Shown: positions 2,410-28,368 of the stretch, piece by piece
How positions within the stretch are numbered: the first letter of the stretch is position 1
Layout: the number at the start of each line of letters is the position of its first letter
NCBI GenBank assembly: GCA_050291745.1
Contig: JBNKKI010000092.1
Span: 13,103 to 77,102, forward strand
Length of the DNA stretch: 64,000 bases
From: Gammaproteobacteria bacterium
GTDB lineage: Bacteria; Pseudomonadota; Gammaproteobacteria; GCA-001735895
Direction of reading: 5' to 3'
Notes under the pieces: generated by a model
Seen by the model: only the letters and a program-made list of their open reading frames with translations
What the model was told of the DNA's origin: nothing
Database searches by the model: none
Made by a program: the position numbers and the translations under genes

Positions 2410-2429
2410 AAGATATTCTGGTTGGTCAT

Positions 2430-2744: not shown

Positions 2745-2758
2745 GCAAAAGCCATCAA

Positions 2759-3010: not shown

Positions 3011-3015
3011 TGAAT

Positions 3016-4263: not shown

Positions 4264-4338
4264 AGGATTTCTCTTTGGTTCGTTATTATTTTATTTAAAG
4301 CTCATCCGGGTAATATTCCCCGGATGAGCTTTAGTTTA

Positions 4339-6189: not shown

Positions 6190-6205
6190 TTTTTATCTCC
6201 TCAAT

Positions 6206-13200: not shown

Positions 13201-13508
13201 GTATCACAATTTCGATAGATGATTTTGGTACTGGATATTCCTCTCTCAGTTATTTAAAGCAGCTACCGGTTCAAAAAATTAAAATTGATCAATCTTTTAT
13301 CAGGGATATTCCTGATGATACAAATGATATGGCTATAGCAGATGCCATTATAGCCATGGGTAAATCTCTCGGATTAATTGTTATCGCTGAGGGTGTTGAA
13401 ACCCAGCAACAAGCTGATTTTTTAAAGCAGTTTGGTTGTCAGGAAGCGCAGGGTTTCTTATATAATAAACCATTAAGCATTGAAGAAATTCATAAACAGT
13501 TTATTTAA
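10209..13508 (+). CDS. CBS-pair(x2)-PAS-GGDEF-EAL c-di-GMP signalling protein
   Basis: 1099 aa; two CBS pairs at the N-terminus, PAS region, GGDEF (RIGGDEF present), EAL (EALIRW, DDFGTGYSS, QGF). Confidence 0.9.
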   Translation: MATKSLSLGEILTSQVITLPPDSQVSHALDKMREKKISAIVIVQDSKPIGIFTERDAVMMVFNNENISHILLKDVMTTHLISAAATMDYREAYRMIKSHNFRHLVVVDEQKNLLGILSESNFLDHLGNEFLVRYKEVGSLMTQTVITLPVDASIKDAIQLMAHNRISCIVLESKGLPKGIFTERDLIKLDNHSPGLLAKPIRNIMSSPVKTILKEESLPNAIEKMERSGIRRLVVVDDQNNIIGLITRSDIVKQLYDRHIEHLQNIIRDREEELKLTQKQLSIMNELIQTQQLLEEKQIELELALDAGKIFTWKLYARDKLIFSDSRMAQVFDLDTAQIEKGIPLELFIAIIDEQDHELIYKSIEHSIKTGENFRVDFRISKGDEVKYFKARGKASKNKANEILSLIGIIADVTGDTKHLLSYKKSQQQLLQAQRIARMGNWELDAKTLKAFWSDDLHKLLGTTAEMDVGLGLLESYVHKADWSALKKSIESAIFDDKKHEVEYRVQAADGSTHWVYCKAKNIKDHSGKVKKLSGILQDITERKYKDEKIRLSTAVFENSLEGILITDIDGNIVDVNPAFSDITGYSYEDVIGQNTRIFKSGHHDEKFYAQIWQSLNDFGQWRGEIWNRRRDGSVFPEWENISSVFDDQGNRTHYVSVFSDISQIKNTQIKLDYLAHHDALTDLPNRLLLNERLNQAIRHAKRLSSKMAIFFLDLDNFKHINDSLGHPTGDSLLKAVTAKLLETVRQDDTVARIGGDEFVLLLEDISRPENAILMADKLLAIFQHSFDLKDHQIGITASMGICLYPEDGEDTETLMRNADSAMYLAKTEGRNTYQFYTKELTRNAFERVLLENNLRKAIDNKEFLLHFQPQYNLTDLKIIGFEALIRWNHPDLGILSPVKFIPIAEDSGLIIPIGKWVLTEACLVAKQWLDSGYDFGRIAVNIAGPQLQRGNLINDVNEALKLSGLAANYLELEITEGFIMQQAKDAIQQLNELRIMGITISIDDFGTGYSSLSYLKQLPVQKIKIDQSFIRDIPDDTNDMAIADAIIAMGKSLGLIVIAEGVETQQQADFLKQFGCQEAQGFLYNKPLSIEEIHKQFI

Positions 13509-13584: not shown

Positions 13585-14301
13585 TTAAAATGATAACTGT
13601 TTTTTGACTTCCTTATAATCGATATGACGAACATCTTTGCCATGTTTTAGAAATAAAACATATTCACAGATATTGATTGCATGGTCACCCACTCGTTCAA
13701 GTGCTCTGGCACACCAGGATACACGTAGAGCGTTTTTTATTGTTCTGGGGTCTTCCATCATTAAAGTGATTAACTGTCGCATCAGGGATTCAAACTCTTC
13801 GTTTACTTTTTGATTCTTTTTGAGAGTTTTAAGTGCAACTTCATCATCGAGTCTGGCAAAAGAATTTAAGGCATTATTTAACATACGACTGACAAGTTGT
13901 CCCAGGTGTTCGAGCTTGGCGTATTGCAAGGAAGTTGAGCCTTCATCCAGTAACTCCAGTTCAAATTTACCTAGTTTTTCAGCCTGATCTCCTATTCTTT
14001 CCAGATCAGTTATGGTTTTTATAATGGCCACCACCAGACGAAGATCACTGGCTGCAGGTTGTCTTCTAGCGAGGATTTCAACACACTGGCTATCAATTTC
14101 AACTTCCATTGCATTTATCTTGTAATCTTCTGTAGATACAAGTTGTGCAATTTCTGAATTTGATTCCATTAAAGCCTTTATGCCATTGTTTAACTGGGTT
14201 TCAACCATGCCACCCATGGTTAATACTTTATTTCTAATGTCTTCCAGTTCGTTATCAAATCGTTTCGATATGTGACCGCCTAACGGAGATTCTGTATTCA
14301 T
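13585..14301 (-). CDS. phoU: phosphate-specific transport regulator PhoU
   Basis: 238 aa, duplicated PhoU helices (DxxIEVxxxRI-type motifs), last gene of the pst operon. Confidence 0.9.
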   Translation of the reverse strand: MNTESPLGGHISKRFDNELEDIRNKVLTMGGMVETQLNNGIKALMESNSEIAQLVSTEDYKINAMEVEIDSQCVEILARRQPAASDLRLVVAIIKTITDLERIGDQAEKLGKFELELLDEGSTSLQYAKLEHLGQLVSRMLNNALNSFARLDDEVALKTLKKNQKVNEEFESLMRQLITLMMEDPRTIKNALRVSWCARALERVGDHAINICEYVLFLKHGKDVRHIDYKEVKKQLSF

Positions 14302-14321
14302 AGAGTGTAATATCCTGATGA

Positions 14322-15230
14322 TTATCCAAATTTTCCAGTGATGTAATTTTCAGTCAATTCGTGACGTGGATTGGTAAATATCTGAGAGGTTTCACCAACT
14401 TCAATTATTTTTCCTAAATGAAAATAGGCAGTTCGTTGAGAAACTCTGGCAGCTTGCTGCATAGAGTGGGTTACGATTGCTATTGTGAAATTCTCTCGTA
14501 GTTCATCAATCAATTCCTCAATAATTGCTGTTGCAATAGGGTCAAGTGCAGAAGCGGGTTCATCCATCAGAATAACTTCAGGGCTGACCGCTATTGTCCT
14601 GGCAATACATAACCTTTGCTGTTGTCCACCAGAAAGACCTGTTCCAGGTTCATTTAAGCGATCTTTGACTTCTTTATATAGACCGGCTTTTTCAAGACTG
14701 GTTATGACTATTTCATCAAGATCAGAATTAGTTCTTGCCAGGCCATGTAAACGGGGACCATAAGCTACATTGTCATAAATTGACTTGGGAAAAGGATTAG
14801 GTTTCTGAAATACCATACCAACTCTGGCCCGTAATAATACTGGGTCCATTTTCCTGCTATAAATATCTTCATTATCCAGTAAAAACTCACCACTAACTCG
14901 ACAGCTTGAAATAGTGTCGTTCATTCGATTAAGTGTTCTTAGATAGGTGGATTTACCACAACCTGAAGGTCCAATCAGTGCAATTACTTCATTGCGGCCT
15001 ATATCAAGTGAAGCATCAAAAATCGCCTGTTTTTCACCATAAAATACATTCACATTTCGTGTTTTAAACTTGGCATTTTGCAGAATATTTTCACCAATCG
15101 TGACATGCTGCTTTTGTTTACTACCTGTATCAGTAGCATTATCTGTAATATCTTCTTGCATAGTATCGGGATTCGCTCGAAAAGACTTTGAGAATGTCGT
15201 TGTTGTCTCAGTTAACATCATTCTTACCAC
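14322..15230 (-). CDS. pstB: phosphate ABC transporter ATP-binding protein PstB; the true start is probably downstream of the annotated one
   Basis: Walker [10 protein letters not shown], signature LSGGQQQRL, Walker B ILMDEP; [16 protein letters not shown] matches the PstB N-terminus; annotated start overlaps the pstA stop. Confidence 0.9.
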
Positions 15231-16501
15231 CGCCTTTCAAAATGTTTTCGTAAAAAGATAGCTAAGGTATTCATAATAGCCAGAAAGACTAATAAAACCA
15301 GAATAGTCGCAGCTGTTAAAGCTGTGAATGCTCGTTCCGGGCTATCAGACCATAAGTAAATTTGAACGGGTAAAACGGTTGCTGAATCTACTATACCACC
15401 AGGCACATCGACAATAAAAGCAACCATTCCAATCATCAGTAGTGGGGCTGTTTCACCTAGAGCCTGTGCCATACCAATGATAGTACCAGTCAATATACCC
15501 GGCATAGCAAGTGGTAGAACATGATGAAATACCGTTTGCATATGAGATGCTCCGATGCCCAGAGCCGCTTCCTTAATAGAAGGTGGTACGGATTTAATGG
15601 CTGCGCGGCTTGAAATGATAATAGTCGGTAGCGTCATTAATGATAAAACCAGGCCACCGACAAGAGGAACAGAGCGGGGCATACCAAAAAAATTGATAAA
15701 TACGGCCAGTCCCAACAGACCAAAAACGATAGAAGGTACGGCAGCCAGGTTATTGATATTTATTTCAATAAAGTCAGTCAGTTTATTTTGAGGAGCAAAC
15801 TCTTCCAGATAAACTGCGGCACCTATTCCTACCGGTAATGAAATTAACAGGGTTACCAGTAAGGTCCAGAATGAACCAAGCAGGGCACCTTTAATACCTG
15901 CCTGTTCAGGTTCTCTGGAATCACTGGCTAACAAAAAATTTGTATTAAAACTGGTACGAATATGCTCATTCTGAATTAAATGATCGATATATATTGCCTG
16001 CCTGTCGCTAACGCGACTAGTTTTAGTTTGCAGCTTATAGAAAGTATCGATGTCATCATCTGCTTTCAACCAGACAGGGAGTACTGGATTTTCATTTTTA
16101 GAAGAAATTAATTCAGGGTGTTTCAATATATATTCACGCAGAGAAAACTCAGCACCACTGGATATCAATTTATATAATTGTTTCTTATCCTTTCTTTTGT
16201 GAACTTCAGGGAACATCTGGCTGAGTGATTTCTTTATCAAACCATAATAATTAATGGCAGATAGTGTTTCTTCATTAATAATCGCATCTGGAGAGAGCTC
16301 CAGTGCTTCTCTATCAATTGCAATCTCTAACAGGATTTCTGTGCTTTGAAACGCGGGTATTGCTTTGATGAATATATCCGCCAAAAGTAATGCAAGGAAT
16401 ACGAAACCCGTTAAAACCGCCAGTTTTCCATACCATTGAAATCGTTTTTCCCTGGCATAGCGCTTGCTCAATCCCTTCTTAACTATATCTGTATTATTCA
16501 T
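15224..16501 (-). CDS. pstA: phosphate ABC transporter permease PstA (long form)
   Basis: 425 aa, permease EAA region ...[20 protein letters not shown]; operon position. Confidence 0.85.
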
Positions 16502-17864
16502 ATTGTTCCCGATATTTTCTTACGATATGCAGAGCAATTACATTGAGTAATAATGTCGTAACAAAGAGCATCAAACCCAGCGCGAAAGCTGCCAGTGTCT
16601 TTGGGCTGTCAAATTCCTGATCCCCGGTTAACAGGGTTACAATTTGAACAGTAACAGTTGTCACTGCATCCAGCGGGTTGGCTGTCATATTAGCGGCCAT
16701 ACCAGCGGCCATAACGACAATCATGGTTTCACCTATTGCTCTGGAAGCAGCTAATAACACTCCACCGACAATACCGGGTAAAGCGGCTGGAATTATGACC
16801 TGTTTAATTGTCTCTGACTTAGTTGCACCGAGGCCAAGCGAACCATCTCGCATGGCCTGGGGGACAGCAGTGATAACATCATCTGATAATGATGAGACAA
16901 AAGGTATTATCATCACACCCATCACAACACCGGCAGCCAGCGCTGATTCGGAAGCGACACTCAGGCCGATAGATTCACCTGCAGATCGTATAAATGGAGC
17001 AACACTTAGCGCAGCAAAAAAACCATAAACAACAGTGGGAATTCCCGCCAGTAATTCAAGTGCTGGTTTTGCCAGAGAGCGAAACCTTTCTGAAGCATAT
17101 TCAGATAAATAAATAGCCGAAAGTAAACCAATTGGGACAGCTATGAACATCGCTATTGCGGATATCAGCATAGTACCAACAAATAAAGGAATAGCACCAA
17201 AGGATCCTGATGAACCAACCTGATCGGAACGAATTGCTGTTTGGGGACTCCAGTTAGTACCTAACATAAAATCTGTAAAAGGAATAGAGTCAAAAAATCT
17301 TAGAGCTTCGAAAAGAACTGATAAAACGATTCCAATAGTTGTAAAAATTGCAACTGCAGAACACAAAGCTAAAAGGCCTTTAATTACTTTTTCAACGCCA
17401 ACACGGGCATGGCTATTAAGTAGTTTTTTTGTTAAGCCTAATATGATGCCGGACAGGCTGAGTAATATAACCAGAATAGTTAAAATGATGCGGCCTTTTT
17501 TCTCGGCTGCATAGTAGCTATCAATAGCTTTTTGTATAACAGGGTCATCACTTGTCTCTCCGTTAGCAATAGCCAGATCAATGCTATTGATATACAAATC
17601 AAGAGAATCTGAACTTTGAATTGACAGATTATCAGGCAGACTAAGAACAATTTGATGATGCAAATAAGCCGGTTGAAACATCATCCAGAATAAAATTAAT
17701 ACTAAAGCAGGAATACCACTTATCAAAGCGGTTAAGACACCATAATGTTTTGGCAAAGATTTGAGTTTTGAACTTGTCCCATGAATAAACGCACGTTGAC
17801 GTGCGCTTATAAACGCGATTAGGCTCAGACCTATAACCAGCAGAAGTAGGGCAGAACTATTCAT
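16494..17864 (-). CDS. pstC: phosphate ABC transporter permease PstC (long form)
   Basis: 456 aa, polytopic, EAA-like region ...LGATKSETIKQVIIPAALPGI; between pstS and pstA. Confidence 0.85.
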   Translation of the reverse strand: MNSSALLLLVIGLSLIAFISARQRAFIHGTSSKLKSLPKHYGVLTALISGIPALVLILFWMMFQPAYLHHQIVLSLPDNLSIQSSDSLDLYINSIDLAIANGETSDDPVIQKAIDSYYAAEKKGRIILTILVILLSLSGIILGLTKKLLNSHARVGVEKVIKGLLALCSAVAIFTTIGIVLSVLFEALRFFDSIPFTDFMLGTNWSPQTAIRSDQVGSSGSFGAIPLFVGTMLISAIAMFIAVPIGLLSAIYLSEYASERFRSLAKPALELLAGIPTVVYGFFAALSVAPFIRSAGESIGLSVASESALAAGVVMGVMIIPFVSSLSDDVITAVPQAMRDGSLGLGATKSETIKQVIIPAALPGIVGGVLLAASRAIGETMIVVMAAGMAANMTANPLDAVTTVTVQIVTLLTGDQEFDSPKTLAAFALGLMLFVTTLLLNVIALHIVRKYREQYE

Positions 17865-17923
17865 TTAGGAAAGATTCAGTAAAAAGTTGAATGAATGTTA
17901 AAGGTAAATACAATTTCAAACCA

Positions 17924-17956
17924 GAAGAAACTCCCGGAATAAACGGGAATTTCTTC
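17924..17956 (-). promoter_or_regulatory. intercistronic stem-loop between pstS and pstC
   Basis: GAAGAAAcTCCCG-gaataaa-CGGGAaTTTCTTC: 12-13 bp stem, 7 nt loop, inside the 114 bp pstS-pstC gap. Confidence 0.5.
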
Positions 17957-17978
17957 AGGCAGGATGTCATAAACTCTC

Positions 17979-19019
17979 TTACATTTTAAACTTTTTACCC
18001 ATCATAATGCTTTTACGTAAAGCTGTACGATCTGCTGAAGATAATGGGATTAATCCTTTATCCAGTAAGTAACCGTCATCACCCATAGCCGCTTCTGTTG
18101 TAAACTCTTTTAGATATTCTTTCATACCTGGTATAGCATCTATGTGAGCATTCTTTACATAGAAAAATAATGGGCGAGAGATAGGGTAAGATCCATCAGA
18201 GATTGTTTCAAATTCTGGTGATTCACCTTCAACCAGTGAGCCCTGAACCTTATCATCGTTCTGCTCCAGGAATGAAAATCCAAAAATACCAAGGGCATTT
18301 GAATTTTTTTCCAGCTTTTGAACAATCAGGTTATCATTTTCACCCGCTTCAATATAAGGACCATCTTCACGAATAGTATGACAAATTGCTTTATAAGCCT
18401 TTTTGTCTTTCTTTTTCATGGCTTTGATCCAGTCAAATTTCTTACAACCACCTTCCATAGCCAATTCTGCAAAAGCATCACGTGTACCAGAAGTAGGTGG
18501 TGGTCCTAATACTTCAATTGTGGAATTTGGTAATGAACTATTGACCTGATTCCATGTTTTATAAGGATTTTCTACCAGTGTTTTACTACCATCAGGATTC
18601 GGTACCTGTTTGGCCAGAGCCAGAAATAAATCCTTACGGGTTAATGAAAATTTCGGTGCTTCTTTTGAATTAGCAATAGCAATTCCATCATAACCAATTT
18701 GTACTTCAGTAATATCTGTAACACCATTTTTCTGACATTTATCATACTCAGATTTTTTAATGGCTCGTGAAGCATTCGTGATGTCAGGAGTATCTAGTCC
18801 GACTCCAGCGCAGAATAGTTTCATACCACCACCTGAACCGGTTGATTCTATTTTTGGAGTATTAAATTTTGTTTTTTTCCCAAATTTTTCAGCTACAACT
18901 GTAGCGAAAGGGTACACTGTTGAGGATCCAACAATGTTAATAGTATCTCTACCTGCAGCCACTGCTGATAAAGAAACCAAGCTTGTTGCTATGGCTGCTG
19001 CCAATACTAATTTTTTCAT
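17979..19019 (-). CDS. pstS: periplasmic phosphate-binding protein PstS
   Basis: 346 aa with signal peptide, SGSGGG and binding-protein fold motifs; first gene of the pst operon. Confidence 0.9.
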   Translation of the reverse strand: MKKLVLAAAIATSLVSLSAVAAGRDTINIVGSSTVYPFATVVAEKFGKKTKFNTPKIESTGSGGGMKLFCAGVGLDTPDITNASRAIKKSEYDKCQKNGVTDITEVQIGYDGIAIANSKEAPKFSLTRKDLFLALAKQVPNPDGSKTLVENPYKTWNQVNSSLPNSTIEVLGPPPTSGTRDAFAELAMEGGCKKFDWIKAMKKKDKKAYKAICHTIREDGPYIEAGENDNLIVQKLEKNSNALGIFGFSFLEQNDDKVQGSLVEGESPEFETISDGSYPISRPLFFYVKNAHIDAIPGMKEYLKEFTTEAAMGDDGYLLDKGLIPLSSADRTALRKSIMMGKKFKM

Positions 19020-19081
19020 AATTTCTCCTACAAGAGTTTAATGTGACATAAATCAACTGATGAGCATTATGAAGATTAAAT

Positions 19082-19099
19082 ATGACAGAAATGTTACAA
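19082..19099 (-). promoter_or_regulatory. Pho box (PhoB binding site) upstream of pstS
   Basis: - strand reads TTGTAAC ATTT CTGTCAT (7-4-7 direct repeat) about 63 bp upstream of the pstS start. Confidence 0.6.
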
Positions 19100-19210
19100 A
19101 ACCAAATGTATTTAACGGCTAAATAGTTTAGCCTTCAAACATAATAAAAAATTCATATATCTTCTATTTTAAAATCAAAAATTCCATACATTTCGGGGTT
19201 AATAAATATC

Positions 19211-20779
19211 ATGGATCTTAAAAATATAAATCAAATTGAACAGGCCATAGAACCAAGTCAGAGTGAATTGCTGCGAATTGGTGTGGCATTTATGTTTATT
19301 ATTGTGATTTTATTATTTGCCGGTAATTCTTTTGCAGGCGTTCCTGGTGGTTATATGTTAATCACGGCAGCCATGATTGGTGGATATATGGCAATGAATA
19401 TTGGTGCCAATGATGTAGCCAATAATGTAGGTCCGGCGGTTGGTTCCAAAGCTGTTACCTTGTTTGGAGCAATTCTTATTGCAGCAATATTTGAAGCTGC
19501 AGGAGCATTAATTGCGGGTGGAGATGTTGTAAGTACCATAAAAAAAGGGATTATTAACCCATCTTTAATTGAGGATTCACAAACCTTTATCTGGCTGATG
19601 ATGGCTGCTCTGTTAGCTGGCGCTGTCTGGCTCAATATAGCCACTTCCCTTGGTGCTCCAGTATCTACAACACACTCTATTGTGGGTGGCGTTCTCGGTT
19701 CGGGTATTGCAGCGGGGGGGATGTCTATAGCCAACTGGACTACAATGGGAAAAATTGTTGCCAGTTGGGTTATTTCGCCTGTTCTGGGTGGGATTATTGC
19801 GGCTTTATTTCTATTGTTAATAAAACGGAAAATCACTTATCGTAGGAATATGCAGGCAGCAGCTAAACGTGTAGTACCGGTTCTGGTTGCAATGATGGCC
19901 TGGGCTTTTTCTACCTATCTCATTTTAAAAGGGCTAAAAAAATTAATTAAAGTCGAATTTCTGACCGCTTTGGGTATGGGGTTACTGTTCTCTATTGTTA
20001 TCTATCTAATAGTTAGACCATTAATAGCAACCGCTGCTGATAGGTATGCCAATGATAAACCGAGTGTAAACAAATTATTTACGATACCATTAATATTTTC
20101 TGCTGCTCTACTCAGTTTTGCACATGGAGCAAATGATGTAGCAAACGCTGTCGGACCTTTAGCAGCTATTAATGATGCAATTTTACATGGCGGAATAGCC
20201 AGCAAAGCGTCTATTCCTTTTTGGGTTATGTTAGTTGGTGCCCTTGGAATTGCCCTTGGATTAGCCTTATATGGCCCTAAATTAATAAGAACAGTAGGGT
20301 CTGAAATTACTGAACTTGATCAAATGAGAGCATTTTCAGTTGCTATGGCTGCTTCCATTACAGTTATTATTGCCAGTCAGTTAGGTTTACCGGTTAGTTC
20401 AACGCACATAGCGGTCGGTGCAATTTTTGGTGTAGGTTTTTTGCGAGAGTATCTGAAAGCAAGCTATGCAAGTATGGAACAGGAAATTATCGATCATCAT
20501 AGTGGACAGGATCAGCAGATTGTAGAGGATTTTCTGGAAGAGTTTCGACGAGGTAATGTGGAAACCAAAGGAATTATGATTAAACGTCTGAAAGAGCATT
20601 CAGCTGATGCCGATCTGACAAAAAGAGAGCGGAAAACTTTGACCAGAGTATATAGGAAGGAATTAGTAAAACGTTCGGCATTAATGAAAATTGTAGCAGC
20701 CTGGGTTATAACGGTACCAGCTTCAGCCATTATGTCGGCAATTATTTTCTTTACTATTAGAGGAATGATGCTTCCTTAA
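19211..20779 (+). CDS. pit: PiT-family inorganic phosphate transporter
   Basis: 522 aa; duplicated GANDVANxVGP signatures (GANDVANNVGPAVGS and GANDVANAVGPLAA) with a cytoplasmic central loop. Confidence 0.9.
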   Translation: MDLKNINQIEQAIEPSQSELLRIGVAFMFIIVILLFAGNSFAGVPGGYMLITAAMIGGYMAMNIGANDVANNVGPAVGSKAVTLFGAILIAAIFEAAGALIAGGDVVSTIKKGIINPSLIEDSQTFIWLMMAALLAGAVWLNIATSLGAPVSTTHSIVGGVLGSGIAAGGMSIANWTTMGKIVASWVISPVLGGIIAALFLLLIKRKITYRRNMQAAAKRVVPVLVAMMAWAFSTYLILKGLKKLIKVEFLTALGMGLLFSIVIYLIVRPLIATAADRYANDKPSVNKLFTIPLIFSAALLSFAHGANDVANAVGPLAAINDAILHGGIASKASIPFWVMLVGALGIALGLALYGPKLIRTVGSEITELDQMRAFSVAMAASITVIIASQLGLPVSSTHIAVGAIFGVGFLREYLKASYASMEQEIIDHHSGQDQQIVEDFLEEFRRGNVETKGIMIKRLKEHSADADLTKRERKTLTRVYRKELVKRSALMKIVAAWVITVPASAIMSAIIFFTIRGMMLP

Positions 20780-20816
20780 AAAAATTTATGGTTCAAAAAG
20801 TTCCAATATGGATGAG

Positions 20817-22139
20817 CTATAAAGTGTATACATTACTGATTTTAGTCATATGTTCTATGGTCCGGTAATTGGGGAAGGTTATTGTAAATCTACTACCCTG
20901 ATTCACTTTGCTTTCTATTTCAAGTGTAGCGCCATGTTTTTGAGCTGCTCTTTTGACTATGGCTAAGCCTAATCCAGAACCAGTAATTTGTTTTCTTGTC
21001 GTGTCACTGCCACGAAAGTAGCGATCAGTGATATAGGGTAAATCCTGCTCAACGATACCGGTACCCTTATCACTCACGCTAAAAACATATTCATTCTGTT
21101 TATTGATACTCCAGGTTACTAATACTGGTGTTTCAGGAGGGGAGTGTTTAATCGCATTTTCAATTAAATTGATACAAATGCCTTCTATTTCGCTTTGTAT
21201 TCCGAGTAAATATAATCCATCCGGTGTAATGCATTGGACTTGCCCCTGAATGAAATTTTTGCCGATGACGTTTTTTACATTATTCATACAATCAGAAATA
21301 GAGACTCTTTCTCCTTCTTCAGGTTGTAGCTGATAACTTTCAACTCGTGATAATAAGAGTAAATCCTGGATCAATTGTTTCATACGTTGAGCTTGTTGTT
21401 GCAGAATAGAAATGGATTTTTTACCTGTATCCGACAATTCAGCTTCCATTTCAAGTATTTCCAGGTAGCCTATGATTGAAGTTAATGGTGTTTTTAACTC
21501 GTGAGAGGCATTAGCAACGAAATGTTTGAGGGCTTCCTGTAATTTTTTCTGATCACTAATATTGCGGACTATTAAGAGGCGTTGGTTTTTGCCAAAGCTC
21601 ACTGCTTTCATTTGCAGGATAATATCCTTATCCAGTGGTGATTGAATTTCCAGGTTGACCTTGTTATCGGGTTCCAGCAGGTAATTCTGTATATCGGGAT
21701 GTCGAAGGAGGTTGTCAATTCGTTGACCGGTGTCATATCTGTTTATTCCAAGCAGGTATGAGGCTGGAGCATTTGACCATTCTATTTCTAAATTCTGATT
21801 GAGTAAAACCGTTGCATCGGGCAAAGCTGAGATATTGGTATTTAATCGGCGAAGAATATCTTTAGTTCGTTTTTTTCTTTTAATATGGACTTTCTTTTGT
21901 AAGTACAGGTGACGAATAATGAGCCCAATAAATCCATTATCATTAAATACTTCCCTTGTTTTAGTACCGCGTGAAAGCCATTTTTCCAGTTTGTACAAAC
22001 GGTAATATATCCAGGCTATATATGCTGAAAGTGGAATTAATATTGCTATAGGCCAGTTCTCAAAGACCAGTCCTAATAGAAAGATCAAGCTAACGGTAAA
22101 AAAAATCCAGCTTTTTTCCGTCTGCCATATTTTATTCAT
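20817..22139 (-). CDS. phoR: phosphate regulon sensor histidine kinase PhoR
   Basis: N-terminal TM pair, PAS, H-box ASHELKTPLTSI, N/G boxes (DKGTGI, GSGLGLAIVK); adjacent to phoB. Confidence 0.9.
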   Translation of the reverse strand: MNKIWQTEKSWIFFTVSLIFLLGLVFENWPIAILIPLSAYIAWIYYRLYKLEKWLSRGTKTREVFNDNGFIGLIIRHLYLQKKVHIKRKKRTKDILRRLNTNISALPDATVLLNQNLEIEWSNAPASYLLGINRYDTGQRIDNLLRHPDIQNYLLEPDNKVNLEIQSPLDKDIILQMKAVSFGKNQRLLIVRNISDQKKLQEALKHFVANASHELKTPLTSIIGYLEILEMEAELSDTGKKSISILQQQAQRMKQLIQDLLLLSRVESYQLQPEEGERVSISDCMNNVKNVIGKNFIQGQVQCITPDGLYLLGIQSEIEGICINLIENAIKHSPPETPVLVTWSINKQNEYVFSVSDKGTGIVEQDLPYITDRYFRGSDTTRKQITGSGLGLAIVKRAAQKHGATLEIESKVNQGSRFTITFPNYRTIEHMTKISNVYTL

Positions 22140-22151
22140 AATGAGATAAAG

Positions 22152-22850
22152 TTAAAAATTTTTTGAACTGAATCTGTAACCAGAGCCACGAATGGTTTTT
22201 ATCATTTTATCCAGTTTAAACTGTTTTAATACTTTTCGTAAGCGAAGAATATGAACATCAACTGTTCTGTCTCCCAGATAGGCATTTACTCCCCAAACCG
22301 CATTTAAAATCTGATCTCGAGAAAAAACCTTGTTTTCATTTGTAATAAAGAATTTTAGTAACTGGTATTCAGTTTTTGTCAGGTCAACCTGGTCATTATT
22401 AATGAAAACTTCATGTACTTCTGTGTTTATTACAATCGATCCAGATTGCAAAACATGGGCAGTATCCGTGTAATTGAAAGGGCGTCTTAATAATGCTTTA
22501 ACCCGGGATTGCAATTCGCGTAAGGATAGAGGTTTTGTCATGTAATCATCAGCGCCAGAGTCCAGTCCAATGATTTTATCCGATTCTTCCGATCTGGCTG
22601 TGAGCATAAGAGCTGGAATTTGTTTAAATTTTTCCTGGCGTCGTAACCAGCGGATCAATTCAATACCTGAACTGTCAGGTAGCATCCAGTCAACAATGAG
22701 GCAATCTGGTTTATTTTCGGCTATGGATTTTTTAGCGCATTTCACATCGATACAGCCGGATGTGTAGTAGTTGGCCTGTGATAAGGATAGACAAATCATG
22801 TCACGAATGGCCTGATCGTCCTCAATAACCAGTATGTTCATATTATTCAC
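22152..22850 (-). CDS. phoB: phosphate regulon response regulator PhoB (OmpR family); likely true start is the ATG at 22841
   Basis: Receiver domain (DD...D...K) plus winged-helix; annotated start is GTG, ATG three codons in gives MNILVIEDD. Confidence 0.9.
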   Translation of the reverse strand: MNNMNILVIEDDQAIRDMICLSLSQANYYTSGCIDVKCAKKSIAENKPDCLIVDWMLPDSSGIELIRWLRRQEKFKQIPALMLTARSEESDKIIGLDSGADDYMTKPLSLRELQSRVKALLRRPFNYTDTAHVLQSGSIVINTEVHEVFINNDQVDLTKTEYQLLKFFITNENKVFSRDQILNAVWGVNAYLGDRTVDVHILRLRKVLKQFKLDKMIKTIRGSGYRFSSKNF

Positions 22851-22881
22851 GTATCCAAAATCTGTATGACATCATAATAAT

Positions 22882-22899
22882 ATGACAGTAATGTGACAA
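22882..22899 (-). promoter_or_regulatory. Pho box upstream of phoB (autoregulation)
   Basis: - strand reads TTGTCAC ATTA CTGTCAT, near-consensus 7-4-7 Pho box about 40 bp upstream of the ATG. Confidence 0.7.
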
Positions 22900-22985: not shown

Positions 22986-23210
22986 TTATTTTTCTTTAGG
23001 TTTTATTTTCTTAGGAAGCAGCGACTGGTCATCAGGAAATAATTCCAGTAATTCTTCATGTCCCATGAAACGATTGAGTTTTTCATGTAATGCCCAGATT
23101 TTATCCCACTTATCATCGGTTAAATCGAATCCTATAGGTAATATGCACACCGCATCATTATTAAAGTCAGTTAATAATTTTGGTTCTTTAAGTATCTTGG
23201 CCATCAGCAT
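22986..23210 (-). CDS. hypothetical 74 aa protein, start overlaps the upstream gene's stop by 23 nt
   Basis: ORF only; 23 nt overlap suggests translational coupling with the acyltransferase/hydrolase gene. Confidence 0.4.
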   Translation of the reverse strand: MLMAKILKEPKLLTDFNNDAVCILPIGFDLTDDKWDKIWALHEKLNRFMGHEELLELFPDDQSLLPKKIKPKEK

Positions 23211-25530
23211 CCTGTGTTAGTTCAAGTTCATTTATCTGAACGATTGAATCAATGATTTTCTGCTGTGTATTATCAATATCTTCATACAAAATGCCATGCC
23301 TTTGTGAATTAATAATTTCGATTTGTTTATCTTTTGCTGAAATATGACGGCATAATAACTTAACACTTTCTGGCTCTACCACAGGATCTTCATTGGATTG
23401 AAATAATCTGACTGGACAGTTAATCGGCGCTGCTTGTTTAAAGAACTGGTCTATGAATTTTTGTAATTCATATAAAGCTCGTATTGGGATATGGGCATAA
23501 TTTACTTCGGGGTGTTCAGCTACATTAGGTCTAAATGGAATAATTCCTTCTGCGTTAACCCATCGGACAAGTTTATTTGCCTGGTGTAATAGTGGGACAA
23601 ACTTCAATTGCTTGCTCCTAAATTCAACTGGTGCAGAAACGGAAATAACTGATGCCAGCTTATCGTCAGGATGCTGAATCGCCTGTTGTAAAGCCAGTAA
23701 GCCACCGGTAGAAAAACCAATAACATGGATATTATTAGAGTAGGCACTGAGTATATCAAAACCGCGCTTAACAGATGCCACCCACTCGCTCCAGTCACGA
23801 TCCCGTAAATCCCATGGGGAAGTGCCATGTCCTTTTAAACGCACACCAATAACATGCCAGTCAAGTTGATAAAAACGTTCTCCAAGAGATATCATTTCAG
23901 CTGGTGAGGCAAGAAATCCATGTATTAACAAAATGCCGGGAACATTATCTTTTTTTGATAAAAAACGAAACCAGTTGGCATCTTTAACATAAGTTTGTGA
24001 CTTGTTTATTTCCTCATAACGGGGTTTGTCATATGCTTTTTTATCCCATTGATAGGCAATTAACTGGTCATCATAACGGTAATTTGCAATTTGTTTTTGA
24101 TCAACATTGTGAACGCTTTTAATCTTTTTATTAAGTAAATGGATAATAGATTTAAGCGGGGCTAATTCATTAGCGTATACACCAATCAAATTCTCTGTCC
24201 GAATAACATCAAAATCAAATTCATTAATTAATTTATCATGAAACAGGTAATGATCTTCTTCATCTTTAGTTTGTACCAGTTCGATCAAATTCATTTTCTC
24301 GGTGGTTTCCAGAAATTGATGTAAGCGACTACTGCCTCCTTCAATGACAGCTCCATATTCCTGCGGGTTTTTTAAGCTCCTATGCAGGTGCACTTTGCTT
24401 TTCTGAACAGCTTTAATGCATAGATACAGGGTTTTATGAAATTCATCAGCATTGATTGATTTAATACCTGACTTATAAAGCTTAAGGATTAAATAAGAGG
24501 CTATATGGCTTAAATTTATGGTTACACTACTGTACATTGCTTTCATATAATCGTCTCTTACGAGGTGAGATTTTTTCTTCATACCAATTGAATGTATGCT
24601 TCCTCCCCAGTGACCGGTTGCTGGCGTTAGATTAAATAGTTCCTCTATTGAATCAAAGCGATGAACTACATTTGGTAGCAATAATTTTTCCCACCATTTC
24701 CAGTATTTTCCCATAATTAATGGTCTGGAAAAATGTATGTCCATATCCGTATGTTTAAATAACAGGTTTCCTTCAATAATCAACTCTTCAGCAAAACGCT
24801 TATTAATACCTTTGTTGAATAGTTTTACAGCCTGATGAAGAATATTATCATTAACTCTGATGGGGTAAAAAGTGATATGACTGGGTACGATAATGGTTGG
24901 TTTGAGAGCCTTTATCAGCAGACTTTCATAGTCATCAAACTCCAGTTGTTTTGCCCAACGCTCTACCTGTTGATAATTTCCTTTTGAGTAGTCTCTCAGC
25001 AATGCAGTTTTAAATGCATCTACAGCCAGGGCGATGACTGCTGCACCTCGATGCTGTTTACGAATTTCCATGGCAGTACGAGAATAGATTCCATATTTTC
25101 CCTTATCATCAACTACCCGTTTGTTTTTAACCATGCCTCCTTCAGGAAAAATGACCAGTTTTCTACCATGCAGGATTTCTTTTGCTATAAATGGAAAAAG
25201 ACCTGGCATAGTGTTGGGAACAACACCAATAGATCTTAGAAACTTTGCAAAACGCTCATCATCGAAGAATTCTGGAGCAGCGATGGATCGGCAATAATCA
25301 CCGGTTTCAGCATGAATAAGATATTGAGGAATAAAGGTTTCAAAACGAGCAAAATGATTAAATAAAAAAATATCACCCTGTTTAATTGTCTGATGACAGG
25401 GTTGGGGAGATTCATCATGCAGTTTGATATTTAATTTGAGTAATTTTCGAGTAGTACGAAAAGCTCTGACACAGATATCATAATTATTCGTTATTTCATA
25501 ATTAGGTGATTTTGCACTGTTTTCAGACAT
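23188..25530 (-). CDS. fusion protein: N-terminal lysophospholipid/glycerol-phosphate acyltransferase-like domain plus C-terminal alpha/beta-hydrolase (lipase/esterase) domain
   Basis: N-terminal NHFARFE (HxxxxD/E-like) and VIFPEGG (FPEGxx acyltransferase motif III); C-terminal LLIHGF...GHGTSP...GFSTGG (GxSxG nucleophile elbow). Confidence 0.65.
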   Translation of the reverse strand: MSENSAKSPNYEITNNYDICVRAFRTTRKLLKLNIKLHDESPQPCHQTIKQGDIFLFNHFARFETFIPQYLIHAETGDYCRSIAAPEFFDDERFAKFLRSIGVVPNTMPGLFPFIAKEILHGRKLVIFPEGGMVKNKRVVDDKGKYGIYSRTAMEIRKQHRGAAVIALAVDAFKTALLRDYSKGNYQQVERWAKQLEFDDYESLLIKALKPTIIVPSHITFYPIRVNDNILHQAVKLFNKGINKRFAEELIIEGNLLFKHTDMDIHFSRPLIMGKYWKWWEKLLLPNVVHRFDSIEELFNLTPATGHWGGSIHSIGMKKKSHLVRDDYMKAMYSSVTINLSHIASYLILKLYKSGIKSINADEFHKTLYLCIKAVQKSKVHLHRSLKNPQEYGAVIEGGSSRLHQFLETTEKMNLIELVQTKDEEDHYLFHDKLINEFDFDVIRTENLIGVYANELAPLKSIIHLLNKKIKSVHNVDQKQIANYRYDDQLIAYQWDKKAYDKPRYEEINKSQTYVKDANWFRFLSKKDNVPGILLIHGFLASPAEMISLGERFYQLDWHVIGVRLKGHGTSPWDLRDRDWSEWVASVKRGFDILSAYSNNIHVIGFSTGGLLALQQAIQHPDDKLASVISVSAPVEFRSKQLKFVPLLHQANKLVRWVNAEGIIPFRPNVAEHPEVNYAHIPIRALYELQKFIDQFFKQAAPINCPVRLFQSNEDPVVEPESVKLLCRHISAKDKQIEIINSQRHGILYEDIDNTQQKIIDSIVQINELELTQDADGQDT

Positions 25531-25673
25531 TCACATTTTCCAGATTAAGCTTCTATACTCAGTATATGACAAGGTTGTGTTCAATTGTTAAAAACTGGAA
25601 AAGTTTACAATAGTATTCAATAAACAGGCTTTGATGCCGAATACAACTTAAAAGTACAAGGAATAATATACAA

Positions 25674-27509
25674 ATGTTACGTCTCATTACATGTTCAAAT
25701 AAGATACTTATCAAGCTTTATATTGGCCTTTTAAGTATGCTATTTGCACTACCTTTGCAGGCTGCTCAACAAGAGGATATTCGTGTTGTTATTGATGTTT
25801 CGGGCAGTATGCAGAAAACTGATCCGGAAAATCTTCGTATTCCTGCGCTTCATTTAATCAATGGTTTAATCCCTACCGGTTCAAAAGCAGGAGTCTGGAC
25901 TTTTGGACGTTATGTGAATATGGAAGTTAAATGGGGCACTGTTAATGCAAACTGGCGCAAACTAGCTGACCTTGGTGCGGATAAAATTCATTCCAGGGGG
26001 CAATATACCAATATTGAAAGTGCTCTTAAACGTGCCACTAAAGGATGGGAGAAAGCTGATCCTGATACAAATCGAAACCTTATTCTATTAACTGATGGTA
26101 AGGTGGATATTTCTAAAAATGCAGAAAAAAATGCTATATCACGATCAAATGTATTGAATAAATCTATTCCAGAGCTCAATAAGAGGGGCATAAAGGTTCA
26201 TACCATCGCTTTATCTGATCAGACTGATGAGACCTTATTGAAAAGACTGGCATTAAAAACTTCCGGCTCTTTTGAAGTTGCGAAATCAGCAGACGATTTA
26301 CAACGAATTTTTCTACACATGTTTGAGAGAGCAACAAAACCGGATACAGTCCCTATTAAAGATAATACTTTTATGATTGATAAAAGTATTAGCGAAATGA
26401 CATTACTTGTTTTCAGGAAAGATAATAAGCTAACTCAGTTAATTGGCCCTGATAATACTAAACAGTCGCAGTCTAAACATGCTAAAAATCTTAACTGGCG
26501 TGATGAGCTTGGATATGACCTGATAACTGTTAATAAACCAGAACCGGGAAAATGGTCGCTGGATGCAGATGTTGATGATGATAACCGAGTTATGATAGTG
26601 ACAAACTTGTCACTTGTTGTGGATGAATTACCTGCCTATATGAGTCCTGATGAAGCCTTAAATATTCATGTTGAACTGCATACTCAGAGTAAACGCATAA
26701 CTAAAAATAGTTTTTTAAAATTTGTCGATTTTCATTTAAGCCATAAAGTTGCGGATAAAACAGAAAACTTACCGTTAATATTAAAAAACTCACGGGATAT
26801 TAAAGATAAAGGTATCTATTTACAGAGTATTTCATCCCCTTTAGAGGAAGGCAGGCATGAAATTGAAGTTGTTGCTGACACACGTACTTTTACACGTAGT
26901 AAAAGGTTTAGTGTTGAGGTGCAATGGCCTGTCACAGTGGAAATTAATAAATCAGCTAATCCGGGTATTTATGAACTTACGATCAAAGCAAGAGATGAAT
27001 ATATTAAAGCGGATTCCCTACAGCTTGATGTGACGTTGATAAGACCCGATAAAACTGAAAAGAAAATCGAGATAAAAACAACTGGAAATCAAGATAAGCT
27101 GGAAATTCGAGCTAATGAACAGGATGGGTTGCATCAGTTACAGATTAAAATGAAGGCGGAATCCCTGGAAGGCAAAATGGTTGAACACAAACTGGATTCT
27201 TATCCTGTTTTTGGGGTATTACTAGAAGAAAAAATGCCTGTTGAAGCAGAACTGAAGCAAGAATCTAAAAAGGAAGAAATTAAAGATGAGAATAAGCCAG
27301 TTGAAATAATTGAAGAAGTTGAAGAAAGCAATGATTCTGACTGGGAAAATACCTTGATATTCATTGTATCCACCAATGTAATTATCATTTTAGTTGTTGT
27401 TGCTGTCGTTGTTTTTATACGTAAGCGTCTGAAAAATGATGATATTGATCTAATTGCTGAAGAATCAGATGATAAAGCCTCTTCGGACGAGGATGTATTT
27501 AATGTTTGA
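25674..27509 (+). CDS. secreted von Willebrand factor A (VWA) domain protein with a C-terminal transmembrane anchor and acidic cytoplasmic tail
   Basis: Signal peptide (...ALPLQAAQ), MIDAS motif VVIDVSGSM, C-terminal TM LIFIVSTNVIIILVVVAVVVFI followed by RKRLK and a D/E-rich tail. Confidence 0.8.
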   Translation: MLRLITCSNKILIKLYIGLLSMLFALPLQAAQQEDIRVVIDVSGSMQKTDPENLRIPALHLINGLIPTGSKAGVWTFGRYVNMEVKWGTVNANWRKLADLGADKIHSRGQYTNIESALKRATKGWEKADPDTNRNLILLTDGKVDISKNAEKNAISRSNVLNKSIPELNKRGIKVHTIALSDQTDETLLKRLALKTSGSFEVAKSADDLQRIFLHMFERATKPDTVPIKDNTFMIDKSISEMTLLVFRKDNKLTQLIGPDNTKQSQSKHAKNLNWRDELGYDLITVNKPEPGKWSLDADVDDDNRVMIVTNLSLVVDELPAYMSPDEALNIHVELHTQSKRITKNSFLKFVDFHLSHKVADKTENLPLILKNSRDIKDKGIYLQSISSPLEEGRHEIEVVADTRTFTRSKRFSVEVQWPVTVEINKSANPGIYELTIKARDEYIKADSLQLDVTLIRPDKTEKKIEIKTTGNQDKLEIRANEQDGLHQLQIKMKAESLEGKMVEHKLDSYPVFGVLLEEKMPVEAELKQESKKEEIKDENKPVEIIEEVEESNDSDWENTLIFIVSTNVIIILVVVAVVVFIRKRLKNDDIDLIAEESDDKASSDEDVFNV

Positions 27510-28368
27510 AGTTTCGTCAATTATATTCAGTTTACTGATCGAAGGATTTATTCTGTTACTGGTATTATTGTCTGTTTTACTTTATTTCCAGTATAAACGA
27601 AAAAGTAAGGATAAAGTGGCCAGCCAGAAACTGGTTAAAAAAATTAAGGATCAGGCAAAAGCAAGAAAGGAGTTAACTAGCACATTCCTGCGGGAAAAAT
27701 TTGGTTTAGAAGGCAAGGAGCTGGAAAAAGTAATGAATACTATCAATAAATCTGAATTAAAATTTATGCAAACTGTTATTAATATGTACCTGCATAGAGA
27801 CGATCAGACCTTAATGGTGATGGATGAAAATGTTGCCGAATTGATTGAAACATATAAGGACTTATCCCCTAAAATCTCAGAAGTTGGAAATCCTGCTGAT
27901 TTACCTGCCGGAGAGCCTGATCCAGCATTAATTGAAGAATTGAATGAATTACGCGAAAACAATGAAAGATTATCAGATGAGTTGAGTATTACCAAAAAGA
28001 CGATGGGTAATATGATTGCGGAATTTGGAAATATGTTTGGAGGTGGTAAAGAGTCTACTCTGGATGCTGATGAAGTTTTAAATAAAGTAAGTGATATTCA
28101 TTTTGAAGCAGATGGTAGAGAAGATGTTTTTGATGCTGCTTCCGTTCTGGATGAGTCGATGGCTACTGATGATATGAATATTGATGATGTTTTGATGGAA
28201 AATGTGACAGAACCACCTGAAGATGATCAGTTACAGGCGGATTTAATTACACAGGAAATAATGGAACAAGAGCAGGTGAAGAAGAAAGAAAACAAGCCCG
28301 TTGAAATATTTGATGAAGGAATCGATGATTTAATGGATGGGATAGATCTGTCAGATGATACTCTGTAA
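27493..28368 (+). CDS. membrane-anchored, highly acidic coiled-coil protein of unknown function (partner of the VWA protein)
   Basis: N-terminal TM IIFSLLIEGFILLLVLLSVLLYF then KRKSK; D/E-rich C-terminus; shares KKENKPVEI[IF] motif with the VWA protein; start chosen at ATG 27493/27502 after GAGGA (the annotated start 27454 overlaps VWA by 56 nt). Confidence 0.55.
   Translation: MYLMFEVSSIIFSLLIEGFILLLVLLSVLLYFQYKRKSKDKVASQKLVKKIKDQAKARKELTSTFLREKFGLEGKELEKVMNTINKSELKFMQTVINMYLHRDDQTLMVMDENVAELIETYKDLSPKISEVGNPADLPAGEPDPALIEELNELRENNERLSDELSITKKTMGNMIAEFGNMFGGGKESTLDADEVLNKVSDIHFEADGREDVFDAASVLDESMATDDMNIDDVLMENVTEPPEDDQLQADLITQEIMEQEQVKKKENKPVEIFDEGIDDLMDGIDLSDDTL

Follow-up and report, generated by a model that had tools for sequence, protein, structure and literature searches.

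The window, a stretch of 64,000 nucleotides of gammaproteobacterial DNA, encodes a 780-aa protein that is a cytoplasmic or peripheral fusion of two enzymes, an N-terminal acyltransferase and a C-terminal serine esterase. Judged from its sequence and from those of its relatives, the fusion enzyme would turn over the ester-linked acyl chains of glycerolipids and would not be a specific phosphate-starvation enzyme, a reading to which we give about an even chance. The substrate would most likely be a lysophospholipid or a monoacylglycerol: the esterase domain would take off one acyl chain, the acyltransferase domain would re-esterify an acceptor using an activated fatty acid, and a FadD-type ligase, fused or adjacent in many relatives, would activate the freed fatty acids for re-use or beta-oxidation. 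The original prediction had called the fusion from its motifs and had recognized no described enzyme of this kind. Domain assignment bears out the call, giving an acyltransferase core (PF01553, sub-threshold in the window protein) and a PF12146 hydrolase, and our literature search likewise found no paper describing an acyltransferase–hydrolase architecture in bacteria.

Table 1. Positions of genes, protein domains and motifs, and upstream elements in the window.
Feature	Position	Strand	Basis or remark
780-aa acyltransferase–hydrolase fusion gene	23188..25530	-	ORF
Acyltransferase catalytic core, LPLAT/GPAT fold, ~aa 33-230	24841..25434	-	
Motif I, N58-H59-F-A-R-F-E64-T65, HX4E form of HX4D	25336..25359	-	Residue conservation
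Motif III, F128-P-E-G-G132	25135..25149	-	Residue conservation
Helical/winged-helix middle region, ~aa 231-515, including motif-IV-like IVPSHITFYP (214-223)	23986..24840	-	
Alpha/beta hydrolase domain, monoacylglycerol lipase/Est30 type, ~aa 525-765	23236..23958	-	
Nucleophile elbow G605-F-S607-T-G609	23704..23718	-	Residue conservation
Small conserved gene, 74 aa from ATG 23210 or 72 aa from ATG 23204	22986..23210	-	ORF
phoB	22152..22850	-	Same strand, 3' of small gene
phoR	20817..22139	-	Same strand, 3' of phoB
Predicted Pho-like site TGAACAC-AACC-TTGTCAT	25566-25583	-	One half-site only
Conserved promoter-proximal block TTGTC(W)TATAC-TGA-GTATAGAAGCTTAA	25545..25572	-	Relatives' upstream regions
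Genuine Pho box/promoter of phoB, TTGTCAC-ATTA-CTGTCAT-ATTA-TTATGAT	22871..22899	-	0-2 mismatches
pstS Pho box	19082-19099		1 mismatch to degenerate pattern

The fusion gene and the small gene that overlaps it are both real, the former because it has thousands of homologues (2104 at E ≤ 1e-5, with 60–100% identity among the 120 matches listed) and the latter because it has 29 homologue clusters and a dN/dS of ~0.03 against its counterpart in the related locus L002. The predicted coordinates of the two ORFs were correct, as was their overlap of 23 nt, which applies to the start at 23210 and shrinks to 17 nt with the second ATG, 23204. The genes also lie, as predicted, on the same strand directly upstream of phoB and phoR, which here belong to a complete pho cluster (phoBR-PiT-pstSCAB-phoU). 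An Rfam scan of the whole window returned no RNA families.

The N-terminal ~515 residues of the 780-aa protein have the fold and motifs of a GPAT/PlsC-type, acyl-CoA/ACP-dependent acyltransferase, with a His59/Glu64 dyad and a GPAT1-like helical extension. Of the features that define the LPLAT/GPAT superfamily, the protein has the motif I dyad (HX4D, with HX4E accepted in the LpxL/LpxM branch), the (F/Y)PEG sequence of motif III and the acyltransferase fold, the predicted structure being of low confidence in the catalytic loops (~aa 131–160 and 223–261). All three motifs named in the original prediction, NHFARFE (58–64), FPEGG (128–132) and, in the hydrolase, GFSTGG (605–610), are present and conserved. 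Among 50 diverse family members, N58 and E64 are invariant and H59 is kept in 49; P129, E130 and G131 are each kept in 49 of 50 and K135 in 47 of 50. Against PF01553 the window protein reaches 19.1 bits, under the Pfam cut-off of 23; 29 of 46 close homologues match this model at E ≤ 0.01, and distant homologues, which connect to the query with E-values of 6e-47 to 1e-32, exceed the cut-off (44.1, 38.3 and 27.7 bits). PDB sequences were searched with the protein itself and with a profile of 46 sequences; both searches retrieved alpha/beta hydrolases only, leaving the N-terminal module without a match. No NCBIfam family reached its own cut-off when the window protein and distant members were scanned, and the window protein matched neither the PlsB nor the PlsC model. 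No signal peptide or transmembrane helix is predicted in the 780-aa protein, no 19-residue stretch of which is hydrophobic enough to span a membrane (maximum Kyte-Doolittle value 1.36).

In glycerol-3-phosphate acyltransferases, the arginines of motif II (FxxR) and motif III bind the phosphate of the substrate. In the window protein, the motif-II position reads S-I-G102-V-V-P-N, where G102 alone is invariant and an arginine is lacking, and motif III is followed by M-V-K135-D-K, not T/G-R-S. Because these phosphate-binding arginines are absent, assignment as a glycerol-3-phosphate acyltransferase (GPAT/PlsB) proper was rejected. The module is 11–12% identical in sequence to GPAT1/PlsB-type enzymes (PDB: 8e4y, 8e50), from which the window protein further differs in the HX4E form of motif I, the fused esterase and the lack of membrane-spanning segments.

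The C-terminal domain is a serine esterase of the monoacylglycerol-lipase/Est30 type with the predicted triad Ser607-Asp715-His745. It scores above threshold for PF12146 (Hydrolase_4), has the alpha/beta hydrolase fold, and carries the GxSxG nucleophile, D715, H745 and the oxyanion HG (H537-G538). Across 47 diverse members, G605 and G609 are invariant, D715 and H745 are each kept in 44, and S607 is kept in 39; in the other eight S607 is replaced by Ala or Gly, and the nucleophile serine is thus missing. Weak NCBIfam matches of the window protein were to lysophospholipase L2 (E 2e-3) and to intracellular PHA depolymerases (45 bits vs a cut-off of 300); PldB is a lysophospholipase L2 of the Hydrolase_4 type. 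The bacterial monoacylglycerol lipases and Est30 (PDB: 5xks, 3rli, 7e04, 1tqh) are stand-alone proteins of ~250 aa, whereas the corresponding domain here forms the C-terminus of a 780-aa chain. Both sets of active-site motifs are conserved down to ~24% identity, an argument for catalytic activity in each domain.

The family is large, with members in marine as well as other Alpha- and Gammaproteobacteria; the acyltransferase module alone falls into 389 clusters at 50% identity. In public databases its members go by no other names than 'alpha/beta fold hydrolase' and 'esterase/lipase', and the family lacks a curated NCBIfam model. The fusion predominates, most full-length matches to the N-terminal module being 720–800 aa long, and members consisting of this module alone (~440–510 aa) also exist. 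A third architecture, of 1308–1418 aa, unites the acyltransferase, the hydrolase and a C-terminal AMP-binding domain in one chain; it accounts for 13 of the 120 profile matches listed, and the top NCBIfam matches of its AMP-binding domain are all long-chain-fatty-acid-CoA ligases. The gene is directly followed by or fused to fadD in four loci (L013, from Varunaivibrio sulfuroxidans, L014, L017 and L018), where fadD precedes a thiolase gene, a 3HCDH/ECH gene and an acyl-CoA dehydrogenase gene in that order. The gene heads fad operons in four of six distant loci. These fad-linked relatives are the more distant ones (~43–47% identity), and the linkage was not seen in the gammaproteobacterial clade of the window. 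The family-wide context points to fatty-acid activation and beta-oxidation.

The same context, with the FadD fusions of many members, would suit a purely catabolic intracellular lipase or esterase that feeds beta-oxidation, in which the GPAT-like module, having given up acyl transfer, would bind lipid or acyl-CoA, target the protein to the membrane or regulate it. The missing motif-II arginine, the change of Asp to Glu in motif I and the low PF01553 score are in keeping with such an enzyme. We nevertheless consider it unlikely: N58, H59, E64, P129, E130, G131 and K135 show little or no variation across ~24% identity, which is unusual for a dead site; the HX4E form is used catalytically by LpxM-type members of the superfamily (PMC6286764); the existence of members with the N-terminal module alone does not fit; and what some members have lost is the serine of the hydrolase rather than the dyad of the acyltransferase.

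Two known groups of fused acyltransferases were compared with the family. Aas of E. coli, a 2-acyl-GPE acyltransferase fused to an acyl-ACP synthetase, re-acylates lysophospholipid, and its combination of a PlsC-type acyltransferase with an AMP-forming domain recurs in the 1308–1418-aa relatives. The window protein, in contrast, has no AMP-binding domain and does not match the NCBIfam Aas model, and its acyltransferase module, of the GPAT1-like kind, far exceeds that of Aas in size; the fused ligase of the relatives is FadD-like, and the Aas model does not appear among the 25 families listed for it. An Aas-type bifunctional enzyme was ruled out on the missing AMP-binding domain and on the better match of the relatives' domain to FadD-type ligases. 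In the plant fusions, the acyltransferase is DGAT2-like, not PF01553/GPAT-like; no DAGAT-family match occurs among 46 members of the present family. According to two reports (10.64898/2026.07.28.741266; PMC12048435), phytyl ester synthase/PYP1 proteins are hydrolase–acyltransferase fusions that both form and cleave neutral esters. These and ELT resemble the window protein in placing a hydrolase and an acyltransferase with lipid-ester substrates in one polypeptide, but they are plastid enzymes of phytol/xanthophyll ester synthesis with the opposite domain order. An ELT/PES-type fusion was ruled out on this reversed order and on the absent DAGAT match.

By analogy with the plant enzymes, the family might instead synthesize and mobilize neutral storage lipids or other esters such as triacylglycerol, wax ester or polyhydroxyalkanoate. 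The fad context would suit the mobilization of stored acyl chains, and the PHA depolymerase matches lean the same way; these scores are, however, far under the cut-off, WS/DGAT matches are lacking as DAGAT matches are, the domain order is the opposite of that in the plant enzymes, and none of the loci read has storage-lipid genes in the vicinity. This function is decidedly improbable.

The original prediction had proposed, from the position of the gene and a weak Pho-box-like site, that the enzyme remodels membrane lipids towards phosphorus-free ones by acyl exchange under PhoB control during phosphate starvation. The position of the gene, immediately upstream of phoBR on the same strand within a complete pho cluster, would favor this. 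However, the window's own contig (L009) alone has phoBR downstream; L002, L003, L008, L010–L012, L004, L006 and L013–L018 do not have it in this place. The adjacency is missing in all seven close relatives with readable downstream sequence, in the clade at 60% identity and in the distant relatives. Seven relatives (67–80% identity) have the same gene pair followed by genes other than phoBR: four carry a Sel1-repeat gene with convergent NUDIX/HAD genes, one has a NUDIX gene immediately after the pair, and in another an unidentified ORF follows. The conserved neighbor in the gammaproteobacterial clade of the window is a divergent VWA/TIGR03503-like gene, and linkage with pho genes, as looked for in a member of the Pho regulon, is not conserved. 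On the gene orders compared, the position beside phoBR-PiT-pstSCAB-phoU is a lineage-specific juxtaposition and no evidence for a function in phosphate starvation.

The window was searched for Pho boxes with a strict (CTGTCATN4CTGTCAT) and a degenerate (YTGTCAYN4YTGTCAY) 18-mer, allowing up to three mismatches, and both searches recovered the boxes of phoB (22882–22899, no mismatch to the degenerate pattern) and pstS. The predicted site has the sequence, the position and the single good half-site ascribed to it, TTGTCAT 36 nt upstream of the start, but it differs from the degenerate pattern at three positions and from the strict one at six. Sites with three mismatches to the degenerate 18-mer number 46 in the window vs 55 ± 8 expected; the site is at noise level, no better than chance. 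Nor is it conserved. In an alignment of eight orthologous upstream regions, the good half-site falls within a promoter-proximal block that occurs once in the window; the block is kept in most of the eight close relatives, while the remaining intergenic sequence has diverged. Four relatives have T at the W position, which destroys TGTCA, and this core is missing at the site in six of seven close relatives. A deletion of ~11 nt, seen in the window by comparison with its close relatives, has placed TGAACAC and TTGTCAT at the spacing of a Pho box, which could be taken in favor of PhoB control. A Pho box is defined by two or more direct repeats of the TGTCA type, each of 7 bp, which are spaced at 11 bp and replace the -35 element; the fusion gene has one half-site, which is not conserved.

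The interval from the small gene to phoB contains a promoter-like element of phoB (TTGTCA-17-TATGAT), and the Pho box of phoB marks the boundary between the two units. Because no terminator was detected on the coding strand before phoB, which would itself fit the PhoB proposal, transcripts of the fusion unit may read through into phoBR. The known PhoB-dependent lipid remodeling systems are PlcP-Agt, OlsBA and BtaAB. The window gene resembles them only in its proximity to phoBR in one genome, and shares with them neither domains nor a Pho box nor conserved linkage. The protein lacks phosphoesterase, glycosyltransferase and aminolipid-forming domains, and so any domain that would cleave head groups or form phosphorus-free lipids; moreover, de- and re-acylation saves no phosphorus. 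With a window-only adjacency, a site at noise level, a phoB that has its own promoter and a family context of fatty-acid metabolism, the proposed PhoB-controlled remodeling is unsupported, and we regard it as very improbable.

Turnover of glycerolipid acyl chains would join two opposite activities, ester hydrolysis and ester synthesis, in one protein; many lineages have a fatty-acid-CoA ligase in addition, or the gene at the head of a beta-oxidation operon. Candidate roles are the clearance and repair of lysolipids, the exchange of acyl chains, or the channeling of lipid-bound acyl chains into catabolic routes, and this large, unstudied family offers a testable lead to a step of bacterial lipid turnover. 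More tentatively, and with real doubt, the family may be a self-contained bacterial 'Lands-cycle' enzyme, in which one polypeptide takes an acyl chain off a membrane (lyso)lipid and puts a new one on, the three-domain relatives also activate the fatty acid, and the 72-aa partner is a clade-specific regulatory or targeting subunit. If so, it would be the first bacterial single-chain system for deacylation, activation and reacylation, by which abundant marine Alpha- and Gammaproteobacteria would tailor or recycle their membrane acyl chains.

The small gene is translationally coupled to the fusion gene, and the two form a two-gene unit. It is directly downstream of the large gene in all eight close loci, but neither the 60% clade nor the distant relatives have it; a 70-aa ORF downstream in L004 is unrelated to it. 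Its product has no match in Pfam, NCBIfam or PDB, and a weak in-frame similarity to a distant homologue, at about residues 393–422 of the latter (E 0.018, the database being tiny), was judged uninformative. The small protein is 88–91% identical in L002 and L003, vs ~76–77% for the large one, with a dN of ~0.05 and saturated dS against L002, and an alignment of 24 sequences has 22 invariant columns. The start at ATG 23204 agrees with the N-termini of the homologues and is preceded by AGGA 5 nt upstream.

An ORF scan reproduced the coordinates of the predicted 780-aa ORF (the fusion gene) and 74-aa ORF (the small gene), including their 23-nt overlap, and domain searches agreed with it in placing phoB and phoR downstream on the same strand. 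Beyond phoR lie an opposite-strand PiT/PHO4 transporter gene and then pstS, pstC, pstA, pstB and phoU, so that the pair adjoins a complete pho cluster. The PiT/PHO4 gene is divergent from pstS, and the two have a common Pho-box region.

Features of the fusion gene locus and its surroundings in the window
Feature	Coordinates	Strand	Remarks
Fusion gene, 780 aa	23188..25530	-	ORF scan
Small gene, 74-aa ORF	22986..23210	-	ORF scan
phoB	22152..22850	-	downstream of small gene, same strand
phoR	20817..22139	-	downstream of phoB, same strand
Complete pho block	13585-22850		phoU, pstB, pstA, pstC, pstS (-); PiT/PHO4 (+); phoR, phoB (-)
phoB Pho box	22871-22899		TTGTCAC-ATTA-CTGTCAT-ATTA-TTATGAT
pstS Pho box	19082-19099		
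Proposed Pho site	25566-25583	-	upstream of fusion gene
Promoter-proximal block	25545-25572	-	TTGTC(W)TATAC-TGA-GTATAGAAGCTTAA
VWA/TIGR03503-like gene and overlapping membrane protein gene	25674-28368	+	611 aa and ~300 aa, divergent from fusion gene
Signalling protein gene	10209-13508	+	1099 aa, directly beyond phoU
Oxidoreductase cluster	1663-6691	-	
ThiF/MoeB-like	1663-2409	-	
Pyridine-nucleotide-disulphide oxidoreductase	3016-4263	-	
Aldehyde:ferredoxin oxidoreductase	4339-6189	-	
4Fe-4S ferredoxin	6206-6691	-	

The large protein has 2104 database matches at E<=1e-5. The best 120 of these, full-length at 754-795 aa except for one partial sequence, share 60-100% identity, come almost wholly from uncultured marine Gammaproteobacteria and are named just 'alpha/beta fold hydrolase' or 'esterase/lipase'. 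Domain assignment, run as a check on the predicted acyltransferase-hydrolase architecture, gave Hydrolase_4 at the C-terminus and, by homologues and predicted fold, a PF01553-type module at the N-terminus; Pfam, structural and motif evidence all uphold the fusion. Residues ~525-765 match Hydrolase_4 far over threshold (E 5.7e-21), and the closest solved structures by sequence are thermostable bacterial monoacylglycerol lipases (5xks, E 1e-28; 3rli; 7e04), with Est30-type carboxylesterases likewise among the closest solved proteins.

On its own, the window protein falls just short of the PF01553 Acyltransferase threshold (19.1 vs 23 bits, E 1.2e-3). The family is matched by 29 of 46 close homologues, and the distant homologues P0224 (44.1 bits), P0264 (38.3) and P0199 (27.7) exceed the threshold, the first two being linked to query residues 1-520 at E 6e-47 and 1e-32, respectively. 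An AlphaFold model made separately for residues 1-515 (pLDDT 78, pTM 0.79) retrieved human GPAT1 as the top Foldseek match (E 2e-9, 481 aligned columns), with PlsC next, and the middle region has a weak GPAT_C match in one member. The close-homologue matches, the distant homologues over threshold and the GPAT1-like predicted fold together argue that the module belongs with PF01553 acyltransferases despite its sub-threshold score. In an alignment of 50 members with identity down to 24%, N58 and E64 are conserved in all 50, H59 and each of P129, E130 and G131 in 49, and K135 in 47; P216 and P223, within the motif-IV-like IVPxxITFYP, are invariant. Motif I has Glu in place of Asp, which is compatible with catalysis since LpxM uses HX4E/D (PMC6286764). 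The module lacks the motif-II arginine that true glycerol-3-phosphate acyltransferases carry, and we therefore do not class it as a GPAT and assign it no particular acyl acceptor.

The large protein joins a GPAT1-like acyltransferase module to a monoacylglycerol-lipase-like esterase. It is soluble or peripheral, none of its 19-residue segments reaching the hydrophobicity of a transmembrane helix, and both predicted active-site motif sets are strongly conserved. Set against this conservation, a catabolic lipase carrying a non-catalytic acyltransferase-like module appears unlikely.

The fusion is the standard form of the family. A search of 1.84 billion cluster representatives that used only residues 1-520 yielded 389 clusters at E<=1e-3, 124 of them at E<=1e-30, and most complete matches are 720-800 aa long; a few members (~440-510 aa) are without the hydrolase. 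A separate long set (~1308-1418 aa; 13 of 120 among the profile matches listed) carries a C-terminal AMP-binding domain, so that acyltransferase and hydrolase are followed by a ligase. All top NCBIfam matches for this third domain are long-chain-fatty-acid-CoA ligases, but under equivalog cut-offs, and JGI names these proteins 'acyl-CoA synthetase/esterase/lipase'. The fusion is also visible to automated annotation in some two-domain members, labelled 'esterase/lipase/1-acyl-sn-glycerol-3-phosphate acyltransferase' by the JGI pipeline. Members also occur in cultured organisms, among them Varunaivibrio sulfuroxidans and Rhodospirillaceae bacterium SYSU D60014. Scans of the window protein and distant members found no curated NCBIfam family for the fusion, and a literature search found no bacterial paper on the architecture. 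The family is widespread and uncharacterised, built of two well-known enzyme folds. In a family-wide alignment, the hydrolase nucleophile Ser607 is replaced by Ala or Gly in 8 of 47 diverse members with the acyltransferase dyad intact, which suggests a non-hydrolytic C-terminal domain in some lineages.

For the small gene, the second ATG (23204, MAKILKEP...) is the most likely start; it fits homologue N-termini, has AGGA 5 nt upstream and shortens the overlap to 17 nt. Its product has 29 homologue clusters (63-100% identity), with 22 of ~72 aligned columns invariant, and no match in Pfam, NCBIfam or PDB. In loci with ~76-77% identity of the large protein, the small protein is 88-91% identical, with dN ~0.05 and saturated synonymous sites. 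The gene lies directly 3' of the fusion gene in 8/8 close-clade loci, mostly overlapping it, and was not found in the 60%-identity clade or in any distant relative examined. Its identity, low dN, constant position and limited distribution mark it as a real, clade-restricted partner, to judge from sequence tightly and translationally coupled to the fusion gene.

The association with pho genes does not extend to relatives. Close relatives (L001-L003, L008, L010-L012; 67-80% identity) share both flanks of the fusion gene: the divergent VWA/TIGR03503-like gene with its downstream partner, and opposite them the small gene. The L001 contig stops shortly past the small gene; none of the other six, readable downstream, has phoBR there. 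The small gene is followed by a Sel1-repeat gene and then convergent NUDIX and HAD genes in L002 and L010-L012, by a NUDIX gene directly in L008, and by an unassigned 334-aa ORF in L003. Downstream in the 60%-identity clade is an NtrB/NtrC-type two-component pair or a GGDEF gene. Among the loci examined, phoBR follows only in the window's own contig, and the pho adjacency is thus a lineage-specific juxtaposition.

Within the window, only the upstream regions of phoB, whose textbook Pho box sits in the 135-nt spacer downstream of the small gene, and pstS come within one mismatch of the degenerate Pho-box 18-mer. The site proposed upstream of the fusion gene has a single good half-site, with six mismatches to the strict 18-mer and three to the degenerate one; its supposed significance is not borne out, as 46 sites in the window are as good vs 55 +/- 8 expected by chance. 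The half-site falls within a promoter-proximal block that contains the palindrome TATAC-TGA-GTATA, occurs once in the window and is kept in most of eight close relatives, the remaining intergenic region having diverged. This block may act as a promoter, an operator or a 5'-leader. The half-site reads TTGTCTT in four of seven close relatives and the TGTCA core is also missing in two more; with the core absent in six of seven, TGTCA is not what is conserved. TGAACAC lies ~15 nt upstream of the block in several relatives vs 4 nt in the window, where the Pho-box-like spacing is the outcome of an ~11-nt deletion. An incipient PhoB site could be read here, though nothing else supports it. A terminator search between the small gene and phoB detected none, so read-through from the fusion gene unit into phoBR is possible; it would set phoBR under the fusion gene promoter, not the fusion gene under PhoB. 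With a chance-level site and a lineage-specific adjacency, the phosphate connection of the original prediction is wrong on present evidence, and a phosphate-starvation role under PhoB is very improbable.

More distant relatives (~43-47% identity) point to fatty-acid metabolism. In four of six sampled loci (L013 from Varunaivibrio, L014, L017 and L018), the fusion gene is first in a fatty-acid degradation operon, followed by genes for a FadD-like ligase, thiolase, FadB-like 3HCDH/ECH and FadE-like acyl-CoA dehydrogenase; the ligase gene abuts or overlaps the fusion gene and in L014 is fused to it. The gammaproteobacterial L016 (62-6835; 46% identity) has the fusion gene beside an MlaDEF-like lipid transporter, and the context of L015 is uninformative. 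The fused or adjacent FadD, the fad operons and the substrate classes of the closest solved enzymes argue for acyl turnover, a mechanism we hold with moderate confidence. The esterase domain would strip ester-bound acyl chains off a glycerolipid, most plausibly a lysophospholipid or monoacylglycerol; the acyltransferase domain would re-esterify an acceptor from activated fatty acid; and released fatty acids would be activated for re-use or beta-oxidation. Turnover of a neutral lipid or another ester is a rather improbable alternative. In E. coli, Aas and PldB do what this mechanism would conceptually combine, but the fusion protein belongs to neither family. The fusion and its FadD/fad-operon linkage open an unstudied step of bacterial lipid acyl turnover to direct testing.

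Several neighbouring genes were also recorded. The VWA/TIGR03503-like protein is secreted and C-terminally anchored, and its gene is overlapped by that of a ~300-aa membrane protein without a family above threshold; the two are divergent neighbours of the fusion gene in all of the gammaproteobacterial relatives examined, including those with as little as 46% identity. In L016, the fusion gene is divergent from genes for a SpoIIE/HDOD phosphatase, an anti-sigma-factor-like kinase, a STAS protein and the MlaE/MlaF/MlaD-like set. The signalling protein beyond phoU contains four CBS domains, PAS domains, GGDEF and EAL, and a GGDEF gene is also downstream of the fusion gene in locus L006. GC content rises to 0.434 at 4001-6000 vs ~0.37 in the surroundings, and the oxidoreductase cluster there may thus have been acquired.
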